A program made the translations under genes and the position numbers. This document shows, piece after piece, positions 16,244-42,749 of a DNA stretch of 59,791 nucleotides (the stretch's first letter is position 1; every line of letters starts with the position of its first letter). The notes below the pieces were generated by a model. That model did no database searches and had not been told where the DNA came from. It saw nothing but the letters and a program-made list of their open reading frames with translations. Source of the stretch: a virus (taxonomy: Duplodnaviria > Caudoviricetes); IMG/VR virus record IMGVR_UViG_3300049846_002562, positions 1 through 59,791 of that record. One strand, given 5' to 3'.

Positions 16244-16279
16244 GCGCCCCCCGGACTACCCCCGGGGGGCGCTTTTTTA
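16244..16279 (+). terminator. Rho-independent terminator
   Basis: 11-bp stem GCGCCCCCCGG/CCGGGGGGCGC followed by a T run. Confidence 0.9.
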
Positions 16280-19593: not shown

Positions 19594-22182
19594 ATGGCCC
19601 GCGATTTCGATGATGTTCGCATCACGTTCTCGGGCAACGTCGAGTTAGCTCGGCAATACGTGTCTGAAGCCCGCAAGTATCTCGGCGGGCTGAAAGACGC
19701 CAACAACACAAACAGCGCATACCGTCACATTACAAACTCTGACGGTGTGCGCTTTTTTGTGGCCAATTACGTCGGGCAAAAACAGATCGAGATCTGGGCT
19801 CCCGGCGGTGAAACCGACGAAAAGTCAAAACTGTTCGTAATACAAGGGTACATGCTTGCGCCACGCACGTTAGCGTCGATTACTGCTTACAGCATAAACC
19901 CTTACACAATTTCAAGTCCTGCGCCTGGAAACGCTGCGCCGTGGAAAACATATTTTTACACAAATCCAGGCGCTTTAACGCCAAGTACGCATCCTACAAA
20001 CGCGTTTGTAGACACGTTTAAAACATACGAAACTGCGTTCTCAAATGCTACCGCTGCCGGTAACTCTTTTTCATCGCTCGTTTTTAACTCGATGTCTTGG
20101 AACAATGCTGACGAAGATCTGTTTGTGTACTGGTCTAACTTGAATTACATAAACAGCGGCAGCTTTAATAATTTGGGCACAGTGTACATAAACGGATCGT
20201 CTGTATTTAACATCAGCACATATTTAACCGAATACACTTCGCGCCGGCTTACTGGTATTTCTGCTGTGCGGACAGGCACCGGTCTTACTGTATACGGAAC
20301 CGCTGCTTGCTTTAGCTCTGGTGCAGGGTCAAACATTGTTCTTTTCCGCGCGACGCTCGTACCTACGACCGCCGAAGTTACCCGCTTGGCTAAACTTGAA
20401 AAGTCTTTAGCACCAGGAGAAAAGCTACAAGGGTATGCCAATGCGTACGTTGTTTCTGAAGCGCCAGTAATTCTTAAAGTGCATTCGATAAGCAACTCGT
20501 ACAATACGTATAGCGCATACGTTTTTAATCAAAGCGCAAACGAATGCCGTGGTATCCACACTGTTACAGTGTCTAACGTATTAACTGTCTACGAAACAGT
20601 TTTTGATCTGCGGCCGTATCTTATTAGCGGAAACGCGCTTGATATTACTGTTACGCAAACAGCTATTGCTACAGGCACTGGTACGCAAACTAATGTAAAA
20701 AATTACGACAGTACGTCTGTAGACGCTCGTACGAGCGACGTACGGATCCAGCTTGGTTGGGATCCGTACGTCATGCCCGATATAGATACGACGTATAGCT
20801 ATACAGAGTCAACAGCACCAATAGTTGAGTATTCGTATAAAACGTATGGTACCGGCAGCACGTATGACGTTTGTAATGGGTATACTCAAGACACTGCAGA
20901 TACGTTTACAGTCAGTTGGTTTAAAGCGTTTGTTGATTATATAAACGACGCGCCAGTGTACGGGTATATTAAGCCGCTTACAAAACAGCGCAACGACACG
21001 TCGCAGATACTTAATTATCCAACAGCGTCGGAAACAATAACAGCCGTGATGAATCTTACGTCATACGCTACAGGGACTGGCGTACCAAATGTTGTAAGCA
21101 CCTATCGCAGCAACACAAAAACGCACGTGCGAAACCCGTCTAATGTGTCGATAACTACCGATCGCGCTGACGAAGCGTTTGCGCTACGCTGCGACTATTA
21201 CGACGAAAACGGCGCTTTTGCTGGATATTGGACAGATTTAGTATACGTGACAGAAGAAAAACGTCGACGCACTGTTACTAGCAGTTATTCATCTACAAAA
21301 CTTACTGTAACGCAAGACACTACCGGCACGTATCCTAATCCCTGGGACGGCAATTCGTTTAATGCGTCGTACTCAGAAAACGTGTCTGCGCCGCTTGTAG
21401 ACAACTACACTGCAACAAAAACTATTGCAGTGCACCACATTAATTTACGTACAAAATCACTGGCGTTAACCGTCACAACCAGTAAAACGTCAAATTTAAA
21501 CTCTACAGCTTGCTCAGGGTCTGTCAGTATTACTGGCGTAGGTACGGCTACCATACCGTACGTGACTACTTCGCAAACTACTACAGAAACAAAACGACAG
21601 ACATTTATTATGCACGCCGGCACGACAGTGTTTCTTTCTTCAGAAGTCGTGTCTGCGTCTTCTACTCCTAGTCCGACAGTAACAAATAGCACTGTAAGTT
21701 TTCAATCACTTTCTGGAATTCAAACACAATATATGAGTGCGGCGTCACTTGTGCCGCAATTTTCCCGCGTCGTTTCGGCTGACGCTGCTGCACTCGATGC
21801 TTACGCAACTGCAAATACGCAGCCTACTTTGGAACCTACCTATCCATACACGCATGGTACGATTGGGCTGTCACCTGCTGATATTTCAACGTCTGTTGCG
21901 CGGTCTCCATTTTCAAACATTGTATCTCCGACTGTATCGTCGTGGCCTGGACTTAACAGCGAGCCGTCAAACACAGAAGCTATGGCTACCCGTGTAAATT
22001 CGTACGTAATTAACGGTTCGTATTACACAGGCATAAATACTCGCGCGCCTATACGCCTGACATCGCATAATGTGATAGGGTTTGCAGGTACAATTGACTA
22101 TATTACTGGCGCGCATACGTCACCGTTTTTTACGTCACCGTTTAATATTTCTGCAATAGCAGACGCTGTAAAAAAAGCATAA
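19594..22182 (+). CDS. Large Ser/Thr/Tyr-rich virion protein, possibly receptor-binding
   Basis: 862-aa ORF in the tail module. Codons are GC-rich in the N-terminus and AT-rich for the remainder. Confidence 0.55.
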   Translation: MARDFDDVRITFSGNVELARQYVSEARKYLGGLKDANNTNSAYRHITNSDGVRFFVANYVGQKQIEIWAPGGETDEKSKLFVIQGYMLAPRTLASITAYSINPYTISSPAPGNAAPWKTYFYTNPGALTPSTHPTNAFVDTFKTYETAFSNATAAGNSFSSLVFNSMSWNNADEDLFVYWSNLNYINSGSFNNLGTVYINGSSVFNISTYLTEYTSRRLTGISAVRTGTGLTVYGTAACFSSGAGSNIVLFRATLVPTTAEVTRLAKLEKSLAPGEKLQGYANAYVVSEAPVILKVHSISNSYNTYSAYVFNQSANECRGIHTVTVSNVLTVYETVFDLRPYLISGNALDITVTQTAIATGTGTQTNVKNYDSTSVDARTSDVRIQLGWDPYVMPDIDTTYSYTESTAPIVEYSYKTYGTGSTYDVCNGYTQDTADTFTVSWFKAFVDYINDAPVYGYIKPLTKQRNDTSQILNYPTASETITAVMNLTSYATGTGVPNVVSTYRSNTKTHVRNPSNVSITTDRADEAFALRCDYYDENGAFAGYWTDLVYVTEEKRRRTVTSSYSSTKLTVTQDTTGTYPNPWDGNSFNASYSENVSAPLVDNYTATKTIAVHHINLRTKSLALTVTTSKTSNLNSTACSGSVSITGVGTATIPYVTTSQTTTETKRQTFIMHAGTTVFLSSEVVSASSTPSPTVTNSTVSFQSLSGIQTQYMSAASLVPQFSRVVSADAAALDAYATANTQPTLEPTYPYTHGTIGLSPADISTSVARSPFSNIVSPTVSSWPGLNSEPSNTEAMATRVNSYVINGSYYTGINTRAPIRLTSHNVIGFAGTIDYITGAHTSPFFTSPFNISAIADAVKKA

Positions 22183-36500: not shown

Positions 36501-38100
36501 TGACTACGCGTTCTTTGATCCGAGCAGCGTTATGCTTGACGACCAGTTGGGCAAACAGTTTAAGCATGCGCACGCCCGCTTGTTCAACGACATCTTTGAA
36601 AACTACAAAGACGGCGACAAAGCCGACTTGGAAACCCTGGTTGCCATGCTTGAGCCGTCGCTTGGTCAGCAAGCGGTTCAGTATATTGAACCGTTGGTAA
36701 TTCGCACGGAATACGAAAAAGCGTTTCCAAACGGGTTGGACAACAAGCTGATCGAGCAAATGCGCCGGCAAGGTGCCAGCAAAGCGCAGCTTGCCGCTGC
36801 GGCACGCGTGCTTGACGCCGCCCGCAACAAGTTTACGTTCCCGATTTTGAACGACAAAGGCGAGCGCGGCAGCCCGACCATTGCGATGCTCAACAAAACC
36901 CTGGCGACCAAAATGCACAACCGTGAAACCTTGACGGCTATGCAGAATCTGTCTGCGTGGCAGAACCTGCGCCTGTTGCCGCTGGCTCTGCTGTCCAGTC
37001 TAGTTGACCCGCAGGGCATTGCCATTCGTTCCGGCGGTGACATGGGCGCGTCGTTCTTTGCGCTGCGCACCGGTATTGCGGGACTTTTTGATCAAGGCCT
37101 GCAAGACCAGTTGCATGCCATGGCCGAAGCGGCCGGTTACTCCGCGGAGATCAGCGCTGCCCAAGCGCTGCATGATGGCTTTGGCGCCGGATCTCGTACG
37201 CCGTGGGCGCGCAAAGTCAACAGCTTTGTGTTCAAGTGGAACGGACTGGAGACTTGGACTCGGCAGACCCGATACATGGCGCTGGTCGCTGGCCACGAAA
37301 TGCTGGCCAAATGGCAATCTCAGGCGCGTGGCGAAAACGCGACTGAGCAGCAGCAGGCCAACGCCCGACGCTACTTGTCTGAATTAGGTGTCAAAGTAGA
37401 CGACATCCGAGTCGGAGCACTCTCCGACGGCCCGCTTGCGGGCCGTCGGCAGGTGCTACTGTTATCTCCCGAACAGCGGCTCAATGCCACAAAAGAACAG
37501 CTCCTTGCCGACGACCGCGTAAAAGGCGCGCTCGTTCAGTTTGTTGATGAAGCCATTCTTCGGCCGAACATCTTGCAGACGCCCGGGTACTTCAAAGACC
37601 CGTTCATGTCGATATTCACTCAGTACAAGAATTTCAGCTACGCCATTTACGAGCAGATCGGTCGCCGGCTGGCTCTGGAGCTTGACCACGGTAACTACCA
37701 TGTGGTCACGGCAGCACTGAGCTATTTGCCGGTGATCTTGTTGGCTGAGTTGCTGCGCGAATTCCTTCAGTGGGGTACGGAAGGTAATCCGCAGCGGGAA
37801 CAGTGGGGTGTGCCGGAGTACACGGGCCTGGCCATTGCCAAGACCGGTTTTGCCGGTCCGCGTATCGAATACGCCAGCAGCGTGAAGAAAGACGCCGAAA
37901 TGGGCAACGTTCCGGGTACCAGCGCGCTGGGCCCGACAGTCGGAGCTGTGGGCATGATCAAAGACAGCGCCACAGGCCAGCGGTCTTGGGGAGCTACCGG
38001 AGAGTCTTTAGCCCCCGGTTCTGCGCTCTGGAAGAACTGGAACAACGACAACGCGCCCCCGGCAGGTGGGGGACTACAGCGGAAGGCTGTCGATGCCTAA
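27535..38100 (+). CDS. Giant internal virion (ejection/polyvalent) protein, 3521 aa, with zincin-like HExxH domain
   Basis: Last late gene. N-terminal EGGQEAVQ/GGLLGG region, HESFH motif, and C-terminal FTQYKNF resembling the QFKSF motif of podoviral internal virion proteins. Only one Cys. Confidence 0.75.
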   Translation: MADFLQRYAGNIDPNDESIPQSIRDKLTGANIPGVHVGDALDARIGDRSWGQKTASGVTQELLGQRHLALGLGNYLLGDQDAAVARLKRWEENNQRVNEIAPEFKDFEQIKDFQSGASVLGYQLAKLAPDAILGLGIGAIGKKGATAAAEAAAVEAAARVLATSAAKKEALVIAEKQGLDALKETAGYKAADAAKRTAMEQGRLQQVRETAKDGLLAEARKKLSPEAVKAIGKRGDLGFAIGATVGSIPSNLQDQGQFMLERPDLTREEALKLLAGTTASASTDFIPLAGWLNRFSKKGVEAARKADELFTPRFVKAVVKQAGAEGGQEAVQAMITRQSQNWVDENINMFDQEAMQEYFMNFVAGGLLGGTMGGAGEIGSTTSNAIGNLFKASFKKMEAARLDRENARAQAERDPNTINVPPGGFSSADPTSGTQAAAAAAQASGRTLNPQAAAVLNGDAPQSGDLGSQIKFSQRIDEQSTDLLTEWQNRVAAYRTGGVNAAAQGYDAGVTDVLFPVGIRLGEESLPFANIAAGFGFTNTNKTSEQLKADPLYIYGMRALEKIMRFGMDSTAVTKEDKEYYADLVSMSAEPWRFSVVTALRDLNPTLHAETLAGIDDRLAALKQQTQKEDFNLAESMGVSRDEIANVTGQLDPEGTEGGPEGAGANPDAMALTTNQRTSMLDRDVTSENRANALAYLLNGRKRAFDDGTEDKSRPLGAGEILTREEFEPALVEALKDPAVIAQLGGRDAAIGAYERLQQMLEEKARLMQGSYRREDGTPTNTQERVKQLNKRFEAQVIQNKTLDALANIIRARVMAAADAKTRAEVSANSGVFPNYNQVAFDERKNNETENSAYAVSDERNLIDLGSQMARFISSADGKEERAGKKSGANAIQQQLALLAQLSTNPQLPIDLDTVPWGKKFTIKRFGDREFVFNKKPDNFDTFVEPARKKGENDLAYAKRTKFLRDKHEANQRKMVAESLAAFVAKYGKTAAESKTVQKQVQERETKKAELAKKGAALKEKRANTPPEKRVYETPTSLAVDEIGSGGGADAERVSLGDFVSTDANGNILVEELQPYNASGLKDEEVVPEGRSPSQEARKLIRAINRDKDAAFILNILDKLGIPDATQLKWDAAENGWRVFVGKELQKGILSVAEVEAKAPEMLTNPMMNIFGFEAGNPKKQNVTIGRKERPKTSADLAAFVKDLLIKKIDGNASARSISQQTQRIMDMRGPALRKALDDVLAGDYDTGAYRATEETSQEYKKPENVRDEFGDEVVSDAANQEKIDALENKESFVADDLRNLALAYARKKGVEDKYVLWVFKQANAIANNPNFKTSDQRLNALGNAINVMIEKRGEFGDGLRSMMRDMNVDFNLQKPKPETKLRDNEKADTDVPAGKAKLVPTYMSPETKEKLDKEAAKEADFDATLTEFAQLMRVWMSKKKPLTDKQRVRAAFTKVKQDTTQNVGITKEEAAKDTTVLPKKDPLRPQTDMRGWIESAVQAFIQRQVDVGLKTAEKADKVSRPVAAALDTPFAWAYKLKKAEEKAKSARAQFDTDELVQDLKALNTPQAIEFVKRLEAASKLFVTPAAENKFNKELTSEIDALRAVAPANDPANVEKYFDAVERAYDAAFAKRSERVSKLLASPLAKTVQAQRNNPALKKPKLPENITPSKQVNKPDPRAAARARLSKFTAAEQARLKAAWDKLPDQWKEKILDGTLKLPKSLATQIQQAWQKRAVSKVDPTQKATSATDGQVAMLSGAQMTELMREMFTPGLGRIEGPVTVTTASDSLAVNNPKLKASIAADWQQRPLTQPEHKATVAAFVKSLADLIGSDAAQAMVKTGMLSFVTRDNLPPFASHIGNGVQAYEYEGRIYVLADAPIGNASGVLLHESFHAYAKSLLGEDYIPLLQELAKEAGLAAPVVDTNTVMASELANSAPGLTSIEKNLFDRALAQLNAKEVNLIKTELGSAIAEGQKDSQRFAAVVLFKRATQMLKQKATDYKTIEKGVRVQPEWVIAAKALEDAFSASEKKLNDLLEKRKKYRDTYNTVSSKLTFKETVENVEFKKASMAFRYAKDLFVREFQKNISEIQMPSAARTTANMFVGDITFQLDQIESEFTLLTADAIFNKLRDMRVQEIQYLRGEAFVREETAVDGANDGAVVEDFVRALYVYGSLGSLSSERVPRSVNNAAISQVVSELEKNPRAHIVNTYNDIVNRTMQQYIAYTTDDGNVWRKHVKTKKGTADFDIAASSIQTNSHTNWCISGESYSRMYLNDGDIWLLNSKDGNSMLAIRFFNDEIAEIKGVSNQRQLTNYEQRLAAELARTGLVGKKEVLRYANAWGLTELASIVGSQADVDAATKSAKLAADARENGFAIDDDGNVLDVAVAEYRDRDWDGDDVGPEAFDAFWVPDQNNFQVQRERERDEIRANNLVRRELNMRLENRNEARGDVAGERNDDVPFSVRADSPSEAADSDWIAQAKLRVKLAGVSPEHQAEEFAAYAIENYESAPKNIQTIIDKLFAKMKLALATMLRKLKVAPKYRVALLKDPAVLREIALKGLRQAGKRAEGHTNFGAGSILADVAISAQSAVTRVFGKVYGSVQSERIVAGARQFASERMRGYQAPGNDTTIGEKLDVHNLNQFLQEVLTPEQRNAMYQLAHTTFREVFRQLPENYALMLNSKYGFEYTMYNLYHAYINGQLGDQEAIRPFFMLNKAKAKARELLDIYTDDDLALQILKDMSDGTLMNAAKSPYPYMPEMRLKRKQTKAGSVSQKINDAAVKAGDVFERIFYSDYDRARSSGIAAYQEIINRIQYRSGDRPTINPDGTVNRGLLPAIAHQTGKFLQQFDTAVKGLSKEAQERVVRETYFNMPNPRPGKLSEAETEAFYKIRKIYRDAGAYGVAGGTLDAGQIENNPDYTPVIFDIGGDVKTHKVNLRMLLDQGVINEKNGVKKYKYQRTLQAIYELKNPRRHPTDPEPDFSVLDIAAQKAFIDQVVDYAFFDPSSVMLDDQLGKQFKHAHARLFNDIFENYKDGDKADLETLVAMLEPSLGQQAVQYIEPLVIRTEYEKAFPNGLDNKLIEQMRRQGASKAQLAAAARVLDAARNKFTFPILNDKGERGSPTIAMLNKTLATKMHNRETLTAMQNLSAWQNLRLLPLALLSSLVDPQGIAIRSGGDMGASFFALRTGIAGLFDQGLQDQLHAMAEAAGYSAEISAAQALHDGFGAGSRTPWARKVNSFVFKWNGLETWTRQTRYMALVAGHEMLAKWQSQARGENATEQQQANARRYLSELGVKVDDIRVGALSDGPLAGRRQVLLLSPEQRLNATKEQLLADDRVKGALVQFVDEAILRPNILQTPGYFKDPFMSIFTQYKNFSYAIYEQIGRRLALELDHGNYHVVTAALSYLPVILLAELLREFLQWGTEGNPQREQWGVPEYTGLAIAKTGFAGPRIEYASSVKKDAEMGNVPGTSALGPTVGAVGMIKDSATGQRSWGATGESLAPGSALWKNWNNDNAPPAGGGLQRKAVDA

Positions 38101-39903: not shown

Positions 39904-40203
39904 TCATTCGATAGGGGTCTCAAGGTTTTCTTCAGGAGTGGTGGTAGAAGGCTCGGCAATTTCGTCTTCGACTTCTTCGTCGAGCTCGGCTTCTACTTCT
40001 GGCGCTTTGGTTTTGTTTTTGCCACGCTGCTTGGCGTTAGAGTAACCTGACGCGGTGGCTTTTTTGACAGATTCAAGCCGTTCTTGTTCGGACTTGTGCT
40101 CGATCACCTGGATCTTACCGCCGTTTTTTACGAACGTTTCGATGTCCTGTTTGATCTGATCCGACTTAACTTGATTCACTTTGGCGAGGGTACGAGCTTC
40201 CAT
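39904..40203 (-). CDS. Hypothetical protein with acidic tail
   Basis: IETFVKNGGKIQVI motif, reminiscent of small SutA-like/phage proteins. Confidence 0.5.
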   Translation of the reverse strand: MEARTLAKVNQVKSDQIKQDIETFVKNGGKIQVIEHKSEQERLESVKKATASGYSNAKQRGKNKTKAPEVEAELDEEVEDEIAEPSTTTPEENLETPIE

Positions 40204-40588
40204 GGCAGTAATCCCATATTTCTAAGGCAAGAGTTTGGTGAGATACCGCTGTGGCGATAGGAGTTCCCATCGTCCACTGAAACGGCATGGTTTGAATAAC
40301 GACGGTTCGGTTTGGAAGTCCGACAACGCCCCAGACATTATTGCCTGTTTTTGCGCGCCGGCGCATCCACTCCAGCTGCAGCTCTGAAAAGTCACCGCGA
40401 ACAATGCCCGACCGCGGCATGCTGGTCAGGCGCTTGAATTCAATCCATAGGTCTGCTTTGGCACCGTCGTAGTACCGGTCAGGAGTGCCGTTCATTGACA
40501 GCGAGCCAAAAGTCATAGACTGGCTGTGCAGCTTGCCCAGCTTTTTGAGCTGGTTGTTGACGGCCTGGATGTGGGCTTTCTCGAGCAT
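40166..40588 (-). CDS. VRR-NUC/Holliday junction resolvase-like nuclease
   Basis: GTPD...WIEFK...SELQLEW PD-(D/E)xK motif. Confidence 0.75.
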   Translation of the reverse strand: MLEKAHIQAVNNQLKKLGKLHSQSMTFGSLSMNGTPDRYYDGAKADLWIEFKRLTSMPRSGIVRGDFSELQLEWMRRRAKTGNNVWGVVGLPNRTVVIQTMPFQWTMGTPIATAVSHQTLALEIWDYCHGSSYPRQSESS

Positions 40589-41166
40589 CAGATGTTCAGC
40601 GGCACGCCCGGGCCGACCAGCTCCTGCAGGGCTACCAGATAGGCGATCTGGTTGGCGGCGTCGTCGGCCGCATTGTGGGGAGTCCCTTCAAACGAGGGCG
40701 CCAGCCGGTAATCGGGGTCAAGAATGGCCCGAACGGTGCGGAAACAGCGCTCGTTGCCGTAAGACCACGGTTTCACGTGGAACAAATTGGTCAAAATCGG
40801 CAGGTCGAACATGGCCGGCGCTGCCCAGACCAGCGGATCGTACAGCTGGATAATGCCCTGCAGGTGCTCAAACAGGTGTGTTGGGTGGATGGTGGGGTAG
40901 GTATCGCCAAACACGGCGTCCTGAGCCTGCTTGGACTGCTTAGACCACCATTTGAGGGTGGAAGGGCAGATGTGGGCGTGCTCTTGGCCGTCGGCGTGTA
41001 CGCCGTACGTGCCGTGAATCAGGGTTTCACGCTTGTCGAAGTCGTACAGCACCCAACCGATCTGGGTTACAAACGCCGTCGGTTGGGTCGACAGGGTCTC
41101 CAGATCGATCATCAGGGCGTAACGCTTGGGCTTTTTGGTGAAAAGCGTCGAGATAGAATCAGACAT
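40588..41166 (-). CDS. DEDD 3'-5' exonuclease (DUF5051/Rv2179c-like)
   Basis: MIDLETL, FDLPIL, RCFRT and HNAADDA motifs. Start at MSDSIS. Confidence 0.85.
   Translation of the reverse strand: MSDSISTLFTKKPKRYALMIDLETLSTQPTAFVTQIGWVLYDFDKRETLIHGTYGVHADGQEHAHICPSTLKWWSKQSKQAQDAVFGDTYPTIHPTHLFEHLQGIIQLYDPLVWAAPAMFDLPILTNLFHVKPWSYGNERCFRTVRAILDPDYRLAPSFEGTPHNAADDAANQIAYLVALQELVGPGVPLNI
40769..40784. promoter_or_regulatory. parS: parS-like site 1 (GGTTTCACGTGGAACA)
   Basis: One mismatch to the consensus TGTTNCACGTGNAACA. It lies inside the exonuclease CDS, encoding LFHVKP. Confidence 0.7.
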
Positions 41167-41455
41167 TGCCGGGATTCTCCACAATGTACCAGTCGTAGGC
41201 CGCCATGTCGCCATGGCTGGCCAGCCAAACGCCAACAGAACCGTCAGCGTAGCGCATGTCGTAGTGCGGCCGGTAGGTGATTTCAGTGCCTTCGGGGAAA
41301 ATGCCCAGAAGGGGCGGGCGATTCACGACAAACGTCGATCCTGGCACTTTGAATACGAACATGCCTTTGCCGTTCCAGCCAGCGCGGGCCATGCAGAGCC
41401 CGTTATTGAGCATGTTCATGGCTTGTGAGAAGGTGTAGTAACCGTCAGAATTCAC
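41159..41455 (-). CDS. DUF2829/Tad2-like anti-defence protein
   Basis: F..A...L..G..M.RAGWNGKGM and W.ASH.DM.A.DW signature, with an AGGAG RBS. Confidence 0.8.
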   Translation of the reverse strand: MNSDGYYTFSQAMNMLNNGLCMARAGWNGKGMFVFKVPGSTFVVNRPPLLGIFPEGTEITYRPHYDMRYADGSVGVWLASHGDMAAYDWYIVENPGNV

Positions 41456-41463
41456 GTGAAACT
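41448..41463. promoter_or_regulatory. parS: Degenerate parS-like site 2 (GAATTCACGTGAAACT)
   Basis: TTCACGTGAAAC core with one good half-site, overlapping the start codon of the Tad2-like gene. Confidence 0.45.
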
Positions 41464-41466
41464 CCT

Positions 41467-41499
41467 AAAAAAGCGGCCTGTTCCACGTGGAACAGGCCG
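41467..41499 (-). terminator. Rho-independent terminator whose stem contains parS
   Basis: 26-bp palindrome CGGCCTGTTCCACGTGGAACAGGCCG followed by CTTTTTT on the - strand. Confidence 0.75.
41479..41494. promoter_or_regulatory. parS: Perfect parS site 3 (TGTTCCACGTGGAACA)
   Basis: Exact 16-bp palindrome matching the chromosomal ParB-binding consensus. Confidence 0.8.
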
Positions 41500-41576
41500 G
41501 TTGGGGGAGCAAATACCGGCCAGAAGGGATGGGGGGCATCTGCCGGCGTGCTTGGGGCACAGCGCTCCCGAAAGGC

Positions 41577-41924
41577 TTAGGCGGCTTTGTCTTTGCCTTG
41601 GAGCTTGGCCAGCTTGGCTTGAGCCACCTGGACAGCGCCGTAGGCCGAGTTATGGACTTTCCGCGCTTGGCTGAGCTGTTCTGAAGCTTCTTTCAGACCC
41701 AGTTTCAGGGTGCTCAGATTGGCTTTGACATCAGCGATCTGGGCTTTCTTGGCGGCAGCGGCGGCTTTGGCTTTTTCAGCGGCAGCAGCGGCTTTGGCTT
41801 TTTCCTTGGCGGCTTTGTCAGCGGCTTTGGCTTTGGCCTTGATTTCGGCAGCGGACGGGCCGGCTTTCGGGACGCGTTTGGCGGCGCGCGGGGCGACGTT
41901 GGTGACAGCGGTATCGAGACTCAT
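41577..41924 (-). CDS. Lys/Ala-rich histone H1-like basic protein
   Basis: KAKAKAADKAAKEKAKAAAAAEKAKAAAAAKK, with an AAGG RBS. Confidence 0.65.
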   Translation of the reverse strand: MSLDTAVTNVAPRAAKRVPKAGPSAAEIKAKAKAADKAAKEKAKAAAAAEKAKAAAAAKKAQIADVKANLSTLKLGLKEASEQLSQARKVHNSAYGAVQVAQAKLAKLQGKDKAA

Positions 41925-41954
41925 GGCTTATTTACCTTGTATTTTTGGGGAGAA

Positions 41955-42749
41955 TTACCGGCGACGGCCGGCGGTGGTGCCACGGACGGGTGCCCGCGGT
42001 TTGGCTTTCGGAGCAGACTCCACAGCGGAGTAGTCCGGCTTGCGCATCAACAGGTCTTCGCATTCCGCACGACGGGCAAAATTTGCCGCATAGTCCGGGT
42101 TCGGGACCGGGTCGACGAACGAGATTGCCGCGTACGTGCCGGCGTTTTTGGCAGTGACCGATACGATCGCTTTGATCGGCGGGCCACCCAAGGAACGCAT
42201 CACGTAGCCCACGAAGCCGTCAAACGATTTGATGGCGGTAGGCGGCAGCGACATGGTGTAAATCGGAGCAGACGGATCCAGGTGAGCTTGGTCGTCATTC
42301 GGGTCGAGCAGCAGCACGGCAAGTTCACGGGTGTTCTTGCAGGCTTTGCCTTTGCCGTTGGCTGCAGAACCGAATTGATTCAGTTCGCAGGTGGAGCACT
42401 TGTCGTTCATTTTTTCCGGCGACAGGTCGTCAGGCACCATGTCATTGAGCGACCGGCCGAGCGAGAAGCAGTCGGGCGGGGAAATGACGTTCGGGTTGTA
42501 GGCGCTGGCGTAGTAACGGTTGGCCGAAATGAAGTCGAGTACAACGACTTGAATTTCGTTGCCGAGCGTCTGCCCGTCAGGAAGTTCAATGTCGCCACTG
42601 GCTTGGAATTTGATCTTGTTGCCGGACGGCTGAGAGATCTGCGATTTCATCGCTGCGATTTCGTTGGCCAGTTCTGCGTCAACGGTTGCGATGGAAGTGT
42701 TGCCTGCACGCTTTGCAACGGCAGTGGAAGGGGCTTTCTTTGTTGCCAT
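41955..42749 (-). CDS. Putative ssDNA-binding/annealing protein
   Basis: AAGGAG RBS and strong codon bias. YY...Y.P....PPDC and C..C..NQFGS...GKACKN motifs of a widespread phage replication family. Confidence 0.55.
   Translation of the reverse strand: MATKKAPSTAVAKRAGNTSIATVDAELANEIAAMKSQISQPSGNKIKFQASGDIELPDGQTLGNEIQVVVLDFISANRYYASAYNPNVISPPDCFSLGRSLNDMVPDDLSPEKMNDKCSTCELNQFGSAANGKGKACKNTRELAVLLLDPNDDQAHLDPSAPIYTMSLPPTAIKSFDGFVGYVMRSLGGPPIKAIVSVTAKNAGTYAAISFVDPVPNPDYAANFARRAECEDLLMRKPDYSAVESAPKAKPRAPVRGTTAGRRR

Follow-up and report, generated by a model that had tools for sequence, protein, structure and literature searches.

The window, as the whole stretch of DNA analysed here is called, is the 59,791-base IMG/VR record IMGVR_UViG_3300049846_002562 and belongs to a tailed phage, as it carries terminase, portal, major head and DNA polymerase genes. 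On its minus strand lie, in the direction of transcription, an Ala/Lys-rich open reading frame (ORF), a non-coding stretch, a terminator hairpin, a Tad2-like (Thoeris anti-defence 2-like) gene and an exonuclease gene (Table 1). Laid over these features are three sites, here named A, B and C, which resemble chromosomal-type parS, the motif of the segregation protein ParB. The 16-bp palindrome TGTTNCACGTGNAACA was used as the reference motif. Site C is a perfect parS and at the same time the stem of an intrinsic terminator, site A is a near-perfect copy at a distance of 710 bp, and site B is a half-site.

parS-type sites at the terminator locus

A cluster of three parS sites had been claimed in the original prediction, together with the absence of any comparable match elsewhere in the window, and a scan against the expectation from base composition had been proposed there. 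All three sites were confirmed in the sequence, and the scan of the whole window yielded no further match with fewer than 3 mismatches. At a limit of one mismatch 2 sites, C and A, were found, compared to 0.007-0.019 expected per window from Markov models of order 0-3 built from the window. With the same models a perfect parS is expected 1.7e-4 to 5.4e-4 times per window, and the probability of at least two sites with no more than one mismatch is 3e-5 to 2e-4. Once site C is taken as given, the expected number of further sites of this quality within 730 bp is 2e-4 to 5e-4. Two composition-matched control palindromes gave no site with up to one mismatch in the window. The comparison becomes uninformative when three mismatches are allowed (5 sites found vs 3.37 expected, with 23 of 100 shuffles reaching 5), and due to the fact that 19 sites with up to four mismatches are present in the window, site B among them, B does not rise above background there. 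The signal is confined to the two best sites, C and A, so that the claimed cluster exceeds chance for these two and stays at background level for B in this window.

The three sites are clustered in about 0.7 kb, and direct reading of the sequence showed that their likeness is limited to the 16-bp motif while the flanks are unrelated, which fits a protein-binding site and not a duplicated segment. The counts given above support the view that these sites represent real ParB-type motifs occurring beyond chance. An additional enrichment of half-sites was considered and rejected: 6 of the 21 half-parS heptamers of the window are located in 40769-41494, but 5 of these belong to A, B and C, and the single extra one (at 41024) is not significant.

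Site C is the stem of an intrinsic terminator. The palindrome that encloses it, reaching 5 bp past parS on each side before the T-run, is the longest perfect palindrome in the window. Its hairpin has 11 pairs, of which 8 are G-C, ranks first among the terminator-like sites in 36-48 kb and appears in the minimum free energy fold as well as in the centroid fold. It is located 78 nt 3′ of the stop codon at 41577 on the same strand. A G+C-rich stem-loop with a directly attached U-tract (CUUUUUU), on the gene strand and 3′ of a stop codon, was thereby found, as is usual for intrinsic terminators. The description of site C as a perfect parS was correct, but the earlier reading had missed that the 26-bp palindrome and its T-run make it a terminator stem. 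For the non-coding stretch 41500-41576 a fold z-score of -3.4 was obtained. Searches of this stretch against Rfam returned sub-threshold matches only, namely mmgR (RF00519) with 20.9 bits vs a gathering score of 41 and sX13 (RF02232) with 16.8 bits vs 50, both lying below what is demanded of a C-rich anti-Shine-Dalgarno small RNA (sRNA). C-rich loops (CCCCCC and CUCCCCC) were noticed in the 3′ non-coding stretch before the terminator, and the minus-strand region 41460-41576 may represent a phage sRNA or a structured 3′ untranslated region.

Site B spans the spacer after the ribosome binding site AGGAG (41462-41466) and the GTG start codon (41453-41455) of the Tad2-like gene, the order on the gene strand being hairpin, CTTTTTT, AGGAG and then GTG six bases on. 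It had been described as a degenerate parS, and the string is indeed present, but its identity as the translation start region of the Tad2-like gene had been overlooked. Site A lies within a coding sequence as claimed and occupies a family-variable loop of the exonuclease. The probable start of this gene is the ATG at 41166, which overlaps the end of the Tad2-like gene and is inferred from the 97% relative P0001; the longest ORF begins at a TTG at 41235. In an alignment of 18 sequences (17 homologues besides the window protein) FHVK occurs only in the window protein and in P0001, so protein conservation does not force the DNA of site A, and the possibility that a conserved protein motif (2 of 18 aligned sequences) dictates the site was rejected. 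Likewise rejected was a general tie between parS and Tad2 genes, since a site with up to one mismatch was found in 1 of 80 Tad2-anchored viral loci. This lone exception is locus L127, where a 1-mismatch parS (1468-1483) is located about 1.5 kb upstream of the Tad2-like gene; the other 79 loci carry none. The protein encoded by the 115-aa ORF contains AKAKAA runs and resembles histone H1 in composition; it belongs to no Pfam or PHROG family and has no IMG/VR relative, and some of the neighbouring genes are likewise without known function.

Table 1. Sites, genes and non-coding features of the locus (positions in the window)
Feature	Position	Strand	Description
Site A	40769-40784		parS 15/16, sole mismatch at the outermost base; inside the exonuclease coding sequence, codons L-F-H-V-K-P
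Site B	41448-41463		half-parS (right half and CACGTG core), 4 mismatches in the window
Site C	41479-41494		perfect chromosomal-type parS TGTTCCACGTGGAACA, 0 mismatches, 16/16
26-bp perfect palindrome	41474-41499	-	encloses site C; as RNA an 11-bp stem with 4-nt loop, terminator hairpin
CTTTTTT tract	41467-41473	-	adjoins the 3′ end of the hairpin, on the gene strand
Conserved non-coding stretch	41500-41576	-	separates the upstream stop codon from the hairpin; C-rich, predicted structured
115-aa Ala/Lys-rich ORF	41577-41924	-	no known family; transcript would end at the hairpin
Tad2-like (Thoeris anti-defence 2-like) gene	41159-41455	-	Pfam PF11195, 3.5e-18
Rv2179c-like 3′-5′ exonuclease gene	40588-41166	-	PF16473, 1.2e-26; phrog_255, 5.5e-34

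Gene content and distribution of the sites in relatives and viral DNA

Profile searches of all 59,791 bases, translated in six frames, gave no match to the ParB domains ParB_N (PF02195) and HTH_ParB (PF17762), nor to the ParA-type families AAA_31 (PF13614) and CbiA (PF01656) or to Phage_integrase, whereas the positive controls of these searches were found; no sign of a lysogeny module was seen. The claimed lack of parA, parB and integrase genes was therefore upheld for a record with a CheckV completeness of 94%, which has no terminal repeats and is cut within ORFs on both sides. The record differs from a self-contained ParABS cassette in having neither a ParB gene nor a gene for a ParA-type ATPase, and it shares with the phi29 type the presence of host-type parS on a phage record without ParB or integration module.

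For the analysis of conservation, Logan contigs of four runs were aligned to 40400-42100. Near-identical DNA was present in three runs, with 0 differences in the pieces of X2 and X5 and 6 differences, none of them in a site, in a contig of X3. The fourth run, X6, contains in record 28 (960 nt) a relative with about 94% identity which lacks the Tad2-like gene: positions 41140-41452 (313 bp) are skipped and 18 other letters stand there, the last five of which read TGTTC instead of GAATT in the window and restore the left half-site. Site B of this relative is a 15/16 parS with its mismatch at the outermost base only, and the relative thus keeps C and has a better B than the window, with 1 mismatch vs 4. 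Its exonuclease uses the ribosome binding site and GTG start of the Tad2-like gene. The Tad2-like accessory gene was gained or lost exactly at the start codon and constitutes a presence/absence polymorphism between the phage and this relative. Among the differences listed none falls into 41453-41579, site C included, and the coding flanks carry about 5% substitutions; at least 17 substitutions as well as indels are found in the 118 nt beyond 41579, and 18 differences in 40794-41139. By arithmetic, the probability of 127 unchanged bases at about 5% divergence is about 1e-3. The C-terminus of the 115-aa protein is its most divergent part in this relative.

Nine records of cultured or complete relatives were searched at up to one mismatch. 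One perfect TGTTCCACGTGGAACA each was found in four of them, KPP25, phiR18, CRPAP1904 and YMC17/07/R4900a, all of which are KPP25-type Pseudomonas aeruginosa phages. The site of KPP25 (NC_024123.1, 16588-16603; loci L224/L226), with its equivalents in the other three phages, directly follows the stop codon of the gene that precedes the major head gene, and a single base separates it from a terminator hairpin. ParB_N was not found in KPP25 and phiR18, the two of the four carriers that were searched, for both of which the records are complete. In this phage group the trait is lineage-specific and occurs at non-homologous places, a pattern which looks as if parS was acquired independently within the group. 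According to PMC4368675, parS2 and parS3 of P. aeruginosa, the same 16-mer as site C, are the sites best bound by ParB, and parS1 and parS4, with a mismatch at the outermost base, are bound slightly less well than perfect sites.

The exact parS 16-mer is present in at least 120 IMG/VR stretches, compared to 3 for its mirror image and 12 for a palindrome with swapped halves. It is hence at least 10-40 times commoner than these two matched controls, which implies that chance explains few of the perfect sites in viral DNA. The 120 loci listed (L002-L121) fall into 91 clusters according to their flanking sequence, and 11 of them carry two or more sites with up to one mismatch, whereas about 0.16 would be expected by arithmetic. 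Complete records with direct terminal repeats (DTR), those behind L093 and L100, are among the multi-site loci. The search for ParB_N covered the records of 61 of the 120 loci, and 59 of these 61 were without it (0 of 11 multi-site records and 2 of 50 others with a match); when restricted to records with at least 90% completeness it was found in 0 of 2 multi-site records and 0 of 9 others. Some of the parS-bearing contigs may hold host DNA, which does not apply to records with terminal repeats. Terminator-like hairpins are located within 60 nt of 23 of 123 perfect sites, vs 136 of 6,000 random positions (2.3%) in the same loci; 55 of 120 sites are situated outside long open frames, and the proximity to hairpins is partly due to this preference for intergenic DNA. 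Many unrelated viral contigs and the cultured relatives infecting P. aeruginosa thus show that orphan host-type parS recurs, in favour of the original prediction.

The remaining features of the record concern the phage as a whole. Terminase, portal and major head genes as well as a gene for a 3,521-aa virion protein are encoded on the plus strand, and the replication module (family A DNA polymerase, primase-like protein, SNF2 helicase, PD-(D/E)XK nuclease and DUF932) runs on the minus strand from 59.8 to 38.1 kb; tRNA genes were not found in the record. The nearest cultured kin are the KPP25-type P. aeruginosa phages, with 54% identity for the major head protein and 32% for the DNA polymerase, and the public runs containing this DNA are labelled as freshwater, river or sediment metagenomes. 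Close relatives were sought by several routes: blastn against isolate phages gave a single 117-bp match, searches of IMG/VR with the exonuclease, the DNA polymerase and the 115-aa ORF returned only L122, L123 and L001 and no close relative, a search of JGI metagenomes with the 264-aa neighbour gave one 1-kb contig that covers the wrong side, and genome_contigs searched with the phage DNA polymerase gave no relative. An exact 24-mer of the conserved spacer had no match in either viral_contigs or genome_contigs. Another clean intrinsic terminator, with an 11-bp G+C stem followed by TTTTTT, is located at 16244-16272 on the plus strand 3′ of the head genes, and an 11-bp perfect hairpin without T-run lies at 37424-37449 within the 3,521-aa ORF. 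A 99-aa ORF on the minus strand (39904-40203) has a weak, sub-threshold match to the SutA RNA-polymerase-binding domain (PF20661, 23.2 bits vs a cut-off of 29.3). In 20001-22000 the G+C content drops to 0.45 from 0.55-0.6 around it; this segment belongs to an 862-aa ORF (19594-22182) without Pfam or PHROG match, a candidate for a gene of tail or host-recognition function that was acquired recently.

Interpretation and alternative explanations

We lean towards the reading that C, A and, in the Tad2-less form, B are genuine docking sites for host ParB, laid over a terminator, a coding loop and a start region. This reading is favoured because a terminator leaves unexplained that its stem spells a perfect parS, that copies matching it at 15/16 positions, in unrelated sequence context, are located at a distance of 710 bp and, for the relative, of 15 bp, and that the 16-mer is enriched in ParB-less viral DNA. 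A phage without ParB would accordingly use A and C, and B in the Tad2-less form, in order to load the ParB of its host, with C placed in the stem of the terminator that ends the transcript of the Ala/Lys-rich gene, B at the start of the next gene and A in a permissive loop of the exonuclease. These sites would nucleate host ParB dimers, which after binding of CTP would form closed clamps and slide from there along the adjacent phage DNA, whereupon host ParA and/or the SMC machinery might treat the phage genome like origin-proximal chromosome. The likeliest benefit would be that the phage genome is positioned and faithfully inherited while lytic growth is delayed, for instance in a carrier or pseudolysogenic state in starved, slow-growing freshwater hosts. 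ParB might also be titrated away from the origin of the host, and read-through might be modulated. Binding, spreading and all downstream consequences are put forward by analogy, and the support for the cis-only use of host ParB that had been proposed lies at the level of the sequence.

Several observations weigh against this reading. The role as terminator alone would account for the palindromy and the conservation of site C. The window is one of about 250,000 scanned, among which a few with two near-perfect sites are expected by chance, as calculated from the Markov expectation. The palindrome is extended by at least 4 bp in 2 of 123 perfect sites of other viral loci, which makes the fusion of parS with a terminator unusual. 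In the relative with about 94% identity, 18 of the 20 differences in 40759-41139 could be placed and the other 2 may fall near the end where site A is located, so that A may be altered there. A ParB could also be encoded in the roughly 6% of the genome that the record does not cover. Absence from related phages had been named in the original prediction as evidence against it, and here the outcome is divided: four of the nine cultured relatives and the relative with about 94% identity carry sites, whereas no site with up to one mismatch was found in the other five (Rhizobium phage RHph_TM3_14A, Pseudomonas phage Rollin, Acidovorax phage AP1, Aeromonas phage phiA008 and a spring-water podovirus), and 0 of the 3 closest IMG/VR relatives found have any site with up to two mismatches in their whole records. 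One of these, L122, with a DNA polymerase of 47% identity, lacks everything from the 115-aa ORF through to the exonuclease, with conserved neighbours on either side of the gap.

One alternative is that palindrome and T-run constitute the terminator of the Ala/Lys-rich gene, perhaps also forming the 3′ end of a small C-rich RNA, and that the likeness to parS as well as sites A and B are coincidental. The rank of the hairpin among the terminator-like sites in 36-48 kb, the length of its palindrome, its stable fold and its position behind a same-strand stop codon all agree with this, as do the distant relatives without such sites. Moreover, in a hairpin that is palindromic already, chance agreement at about 9 positions is enough for identity with parS, as judged by arithmetic, and very many windows were scanned. 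What the terminator does not explain is site A, nor B in the relative, given that a second site has the low expectation stated above and a third one the same order again; in addition, the sites share nothing but the 16-bp motif, and the 16-mer exceeds matched palindromes in IMG/VR by the factor reported above. This explanation is regarded as unlikely. Rather improbable to us is the possibility that a protein of the phage itself uses the sites as operators or as a centromere, be it a ParB encoded in the unseen part or an unrelated DNA-binding protein that recognises the same palindrome. The incomplete record with its ends cut inside ORFs leaves room for such a gene, several neighbour genes have no assigned function, and the limitation of the cluster to one locus is reminiscent of plasmid centromeres. 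Opposed to this are the negative searches for ParB_N, HTH_ParB and ParA in six frames of 59.8 kb, the absence of ParB_N from all 11 searched viral records of at least 90% completeness that share the 16-mer, complete ones (DTR or 100%) included, and its absence from the complete records of KPP25 and phiR18. The 16-mer is the near-universal chromosomal parS and is not known to serve ParBs of the plasmid or phage type, such as that of P1, which is counted against this alternative as well.

Regulation at the RNA level has also to be weighed, in which the terminator and a hairpin sequestering the start codon would control read-through into, and translation of, the Tad2-like and exonuclease genes by alternative pairing, the likeness to parS being incidental. 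All three sites are located on one transcribed strand, B overlaps the spacer of the ribosome binding site and the start codon, the intergenic region is predicted to fold (z = -3.4) and does not differ in the relative with about 94% identity, and there is a weak resemblance to the C-rich sRNAs mmgR (20.9 bits) and sX13 (16.8 bits). However, both scores are far under the gathering thresholds (41 and 50 bits), and site B, being located 3′ of the T-tract, is not able to work as an antiterminator. No RNA requirement calls for this particular 16-mer, and its enrichment in unrelated phages would not be explained either; this mode of regulation is considered very improbable.

The docking of host ParB, towards which we lean, can be extended to a joint reading in which the borrowing of host ParB through orphan parS sites would be a widespread phage strategy and not a curiosity of phi29, and in which the fused parS-terminator would serve as a switch responding to ParB occupancy. 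The wide spread would be indicated by the number of lineages with the site (at least 91), by its frequency compared to the control palindromes, by the 59 of 61 searched records without ParB and by a preference of the sites for the ends of transcripts, as seen in their proximity to terminator-like hairpins. A ParB clamp or roadblock at the hairpin would then tune read-through into the Tad2-like and exonuclease genes, and phage gene expression and genome inheritance would be coupled to the host chromosome cycle. We regard this extended proposal as improbable at present.

If docking on host ParB holds true, lytic-type phages of Gram-negative, non-sporulating hosts would have cis-only access to the segregation and condensation machinery of the host. 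This would bear on the persistence of 'virulent' phages in slow-growing natural populations, in the form of a carrier state or pseudolysogeny, and on the behaviour of ParB-CTP clamps on foreign DNA. The cultured KPP25-type P. aeruginosa phages offer a testable system, as ParB genetics and ChIP tools exist for their host.

Comparison with known systems

The use of parS by the phages phi29 and Nf through Spo0J was reportedly first described by Meijer et al. in 2005. Like these phages, the phage of the window is of the lytic type, lacks a ParB of its own and carries several host chromosome-type parS sites. A precedent for the claimed use of host parS by a phage exists in phi29: according to PMC2731898, its genome has five parS sites and host Spo0J is used to get it into the spore. 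phi29 makes use of the segregation protein of its host for the placement of its genome, and the same is proposed by analogy for the present phage. Unlike phi29, whose host is a spore-former and whose sites act in spore entrapment, it is a freshwater phage of about 60 kb with kin infecting Gram-negative, non-sporulating hosts, and one of its sites is fused with a terminator. No paper was found on host-type parS in ParB-less phages of such hosts, and 'parS' was not found in the listed papers naming KPP25, Kochitakasuvirus or phiR18; both searches covered a limited literature and are no proof of absence.

The phage-plasmids P1 (parABS) and N15 (sopABC) encode their own ParA and ParB and possess their own centromere sequences. 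The locus described here resembles these cassettes in bearing centromere-like repeats on a phage genome, and it differs from them in that no ParA or ParB was found and no sign of a lysogeny module was seen.

With respect to the chromosomal sites parS1-parS4 of P. aeruginosa, as presented in PMC4368675, site C corresponds to parS2/parS3, site A and the relative's site B share the outermost mismatch of the parS1/parS4 type, and the sites are clustered, here in about 0.7 kb. Unlike chromosomal parS, the sites are located on a phage, not beside oriC or parAB, and have no ParA or ParB in cis. A further parallel is provided by SGI1, which hijacks the parABS system of IncC plasmids through parS-like sites of its own, as reported in PMC10954446. 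As in the phage, the mobile element holds the cis site only and ParAB is borrowed from another replicon; SGI1 differs in being an integrative mobilisable element that borrows plasmid and not chromosomal ParAB. With intrinsic terminators, finally, the locus shares a G+C-clamped 11-bp stem, a 4-nt loop and a U-tract after a stop codon, but the stems of ordinary terminators are without conserved sequence, whereas here the stem is a perfect parS with near-copies nearby. The principle is thus known from phi29 and, for plasmid ParAB, from SGI1, and particular to the present phage are the fusion of parS with a terminator and the natural presence/absence variant of the Tad2-like gene.

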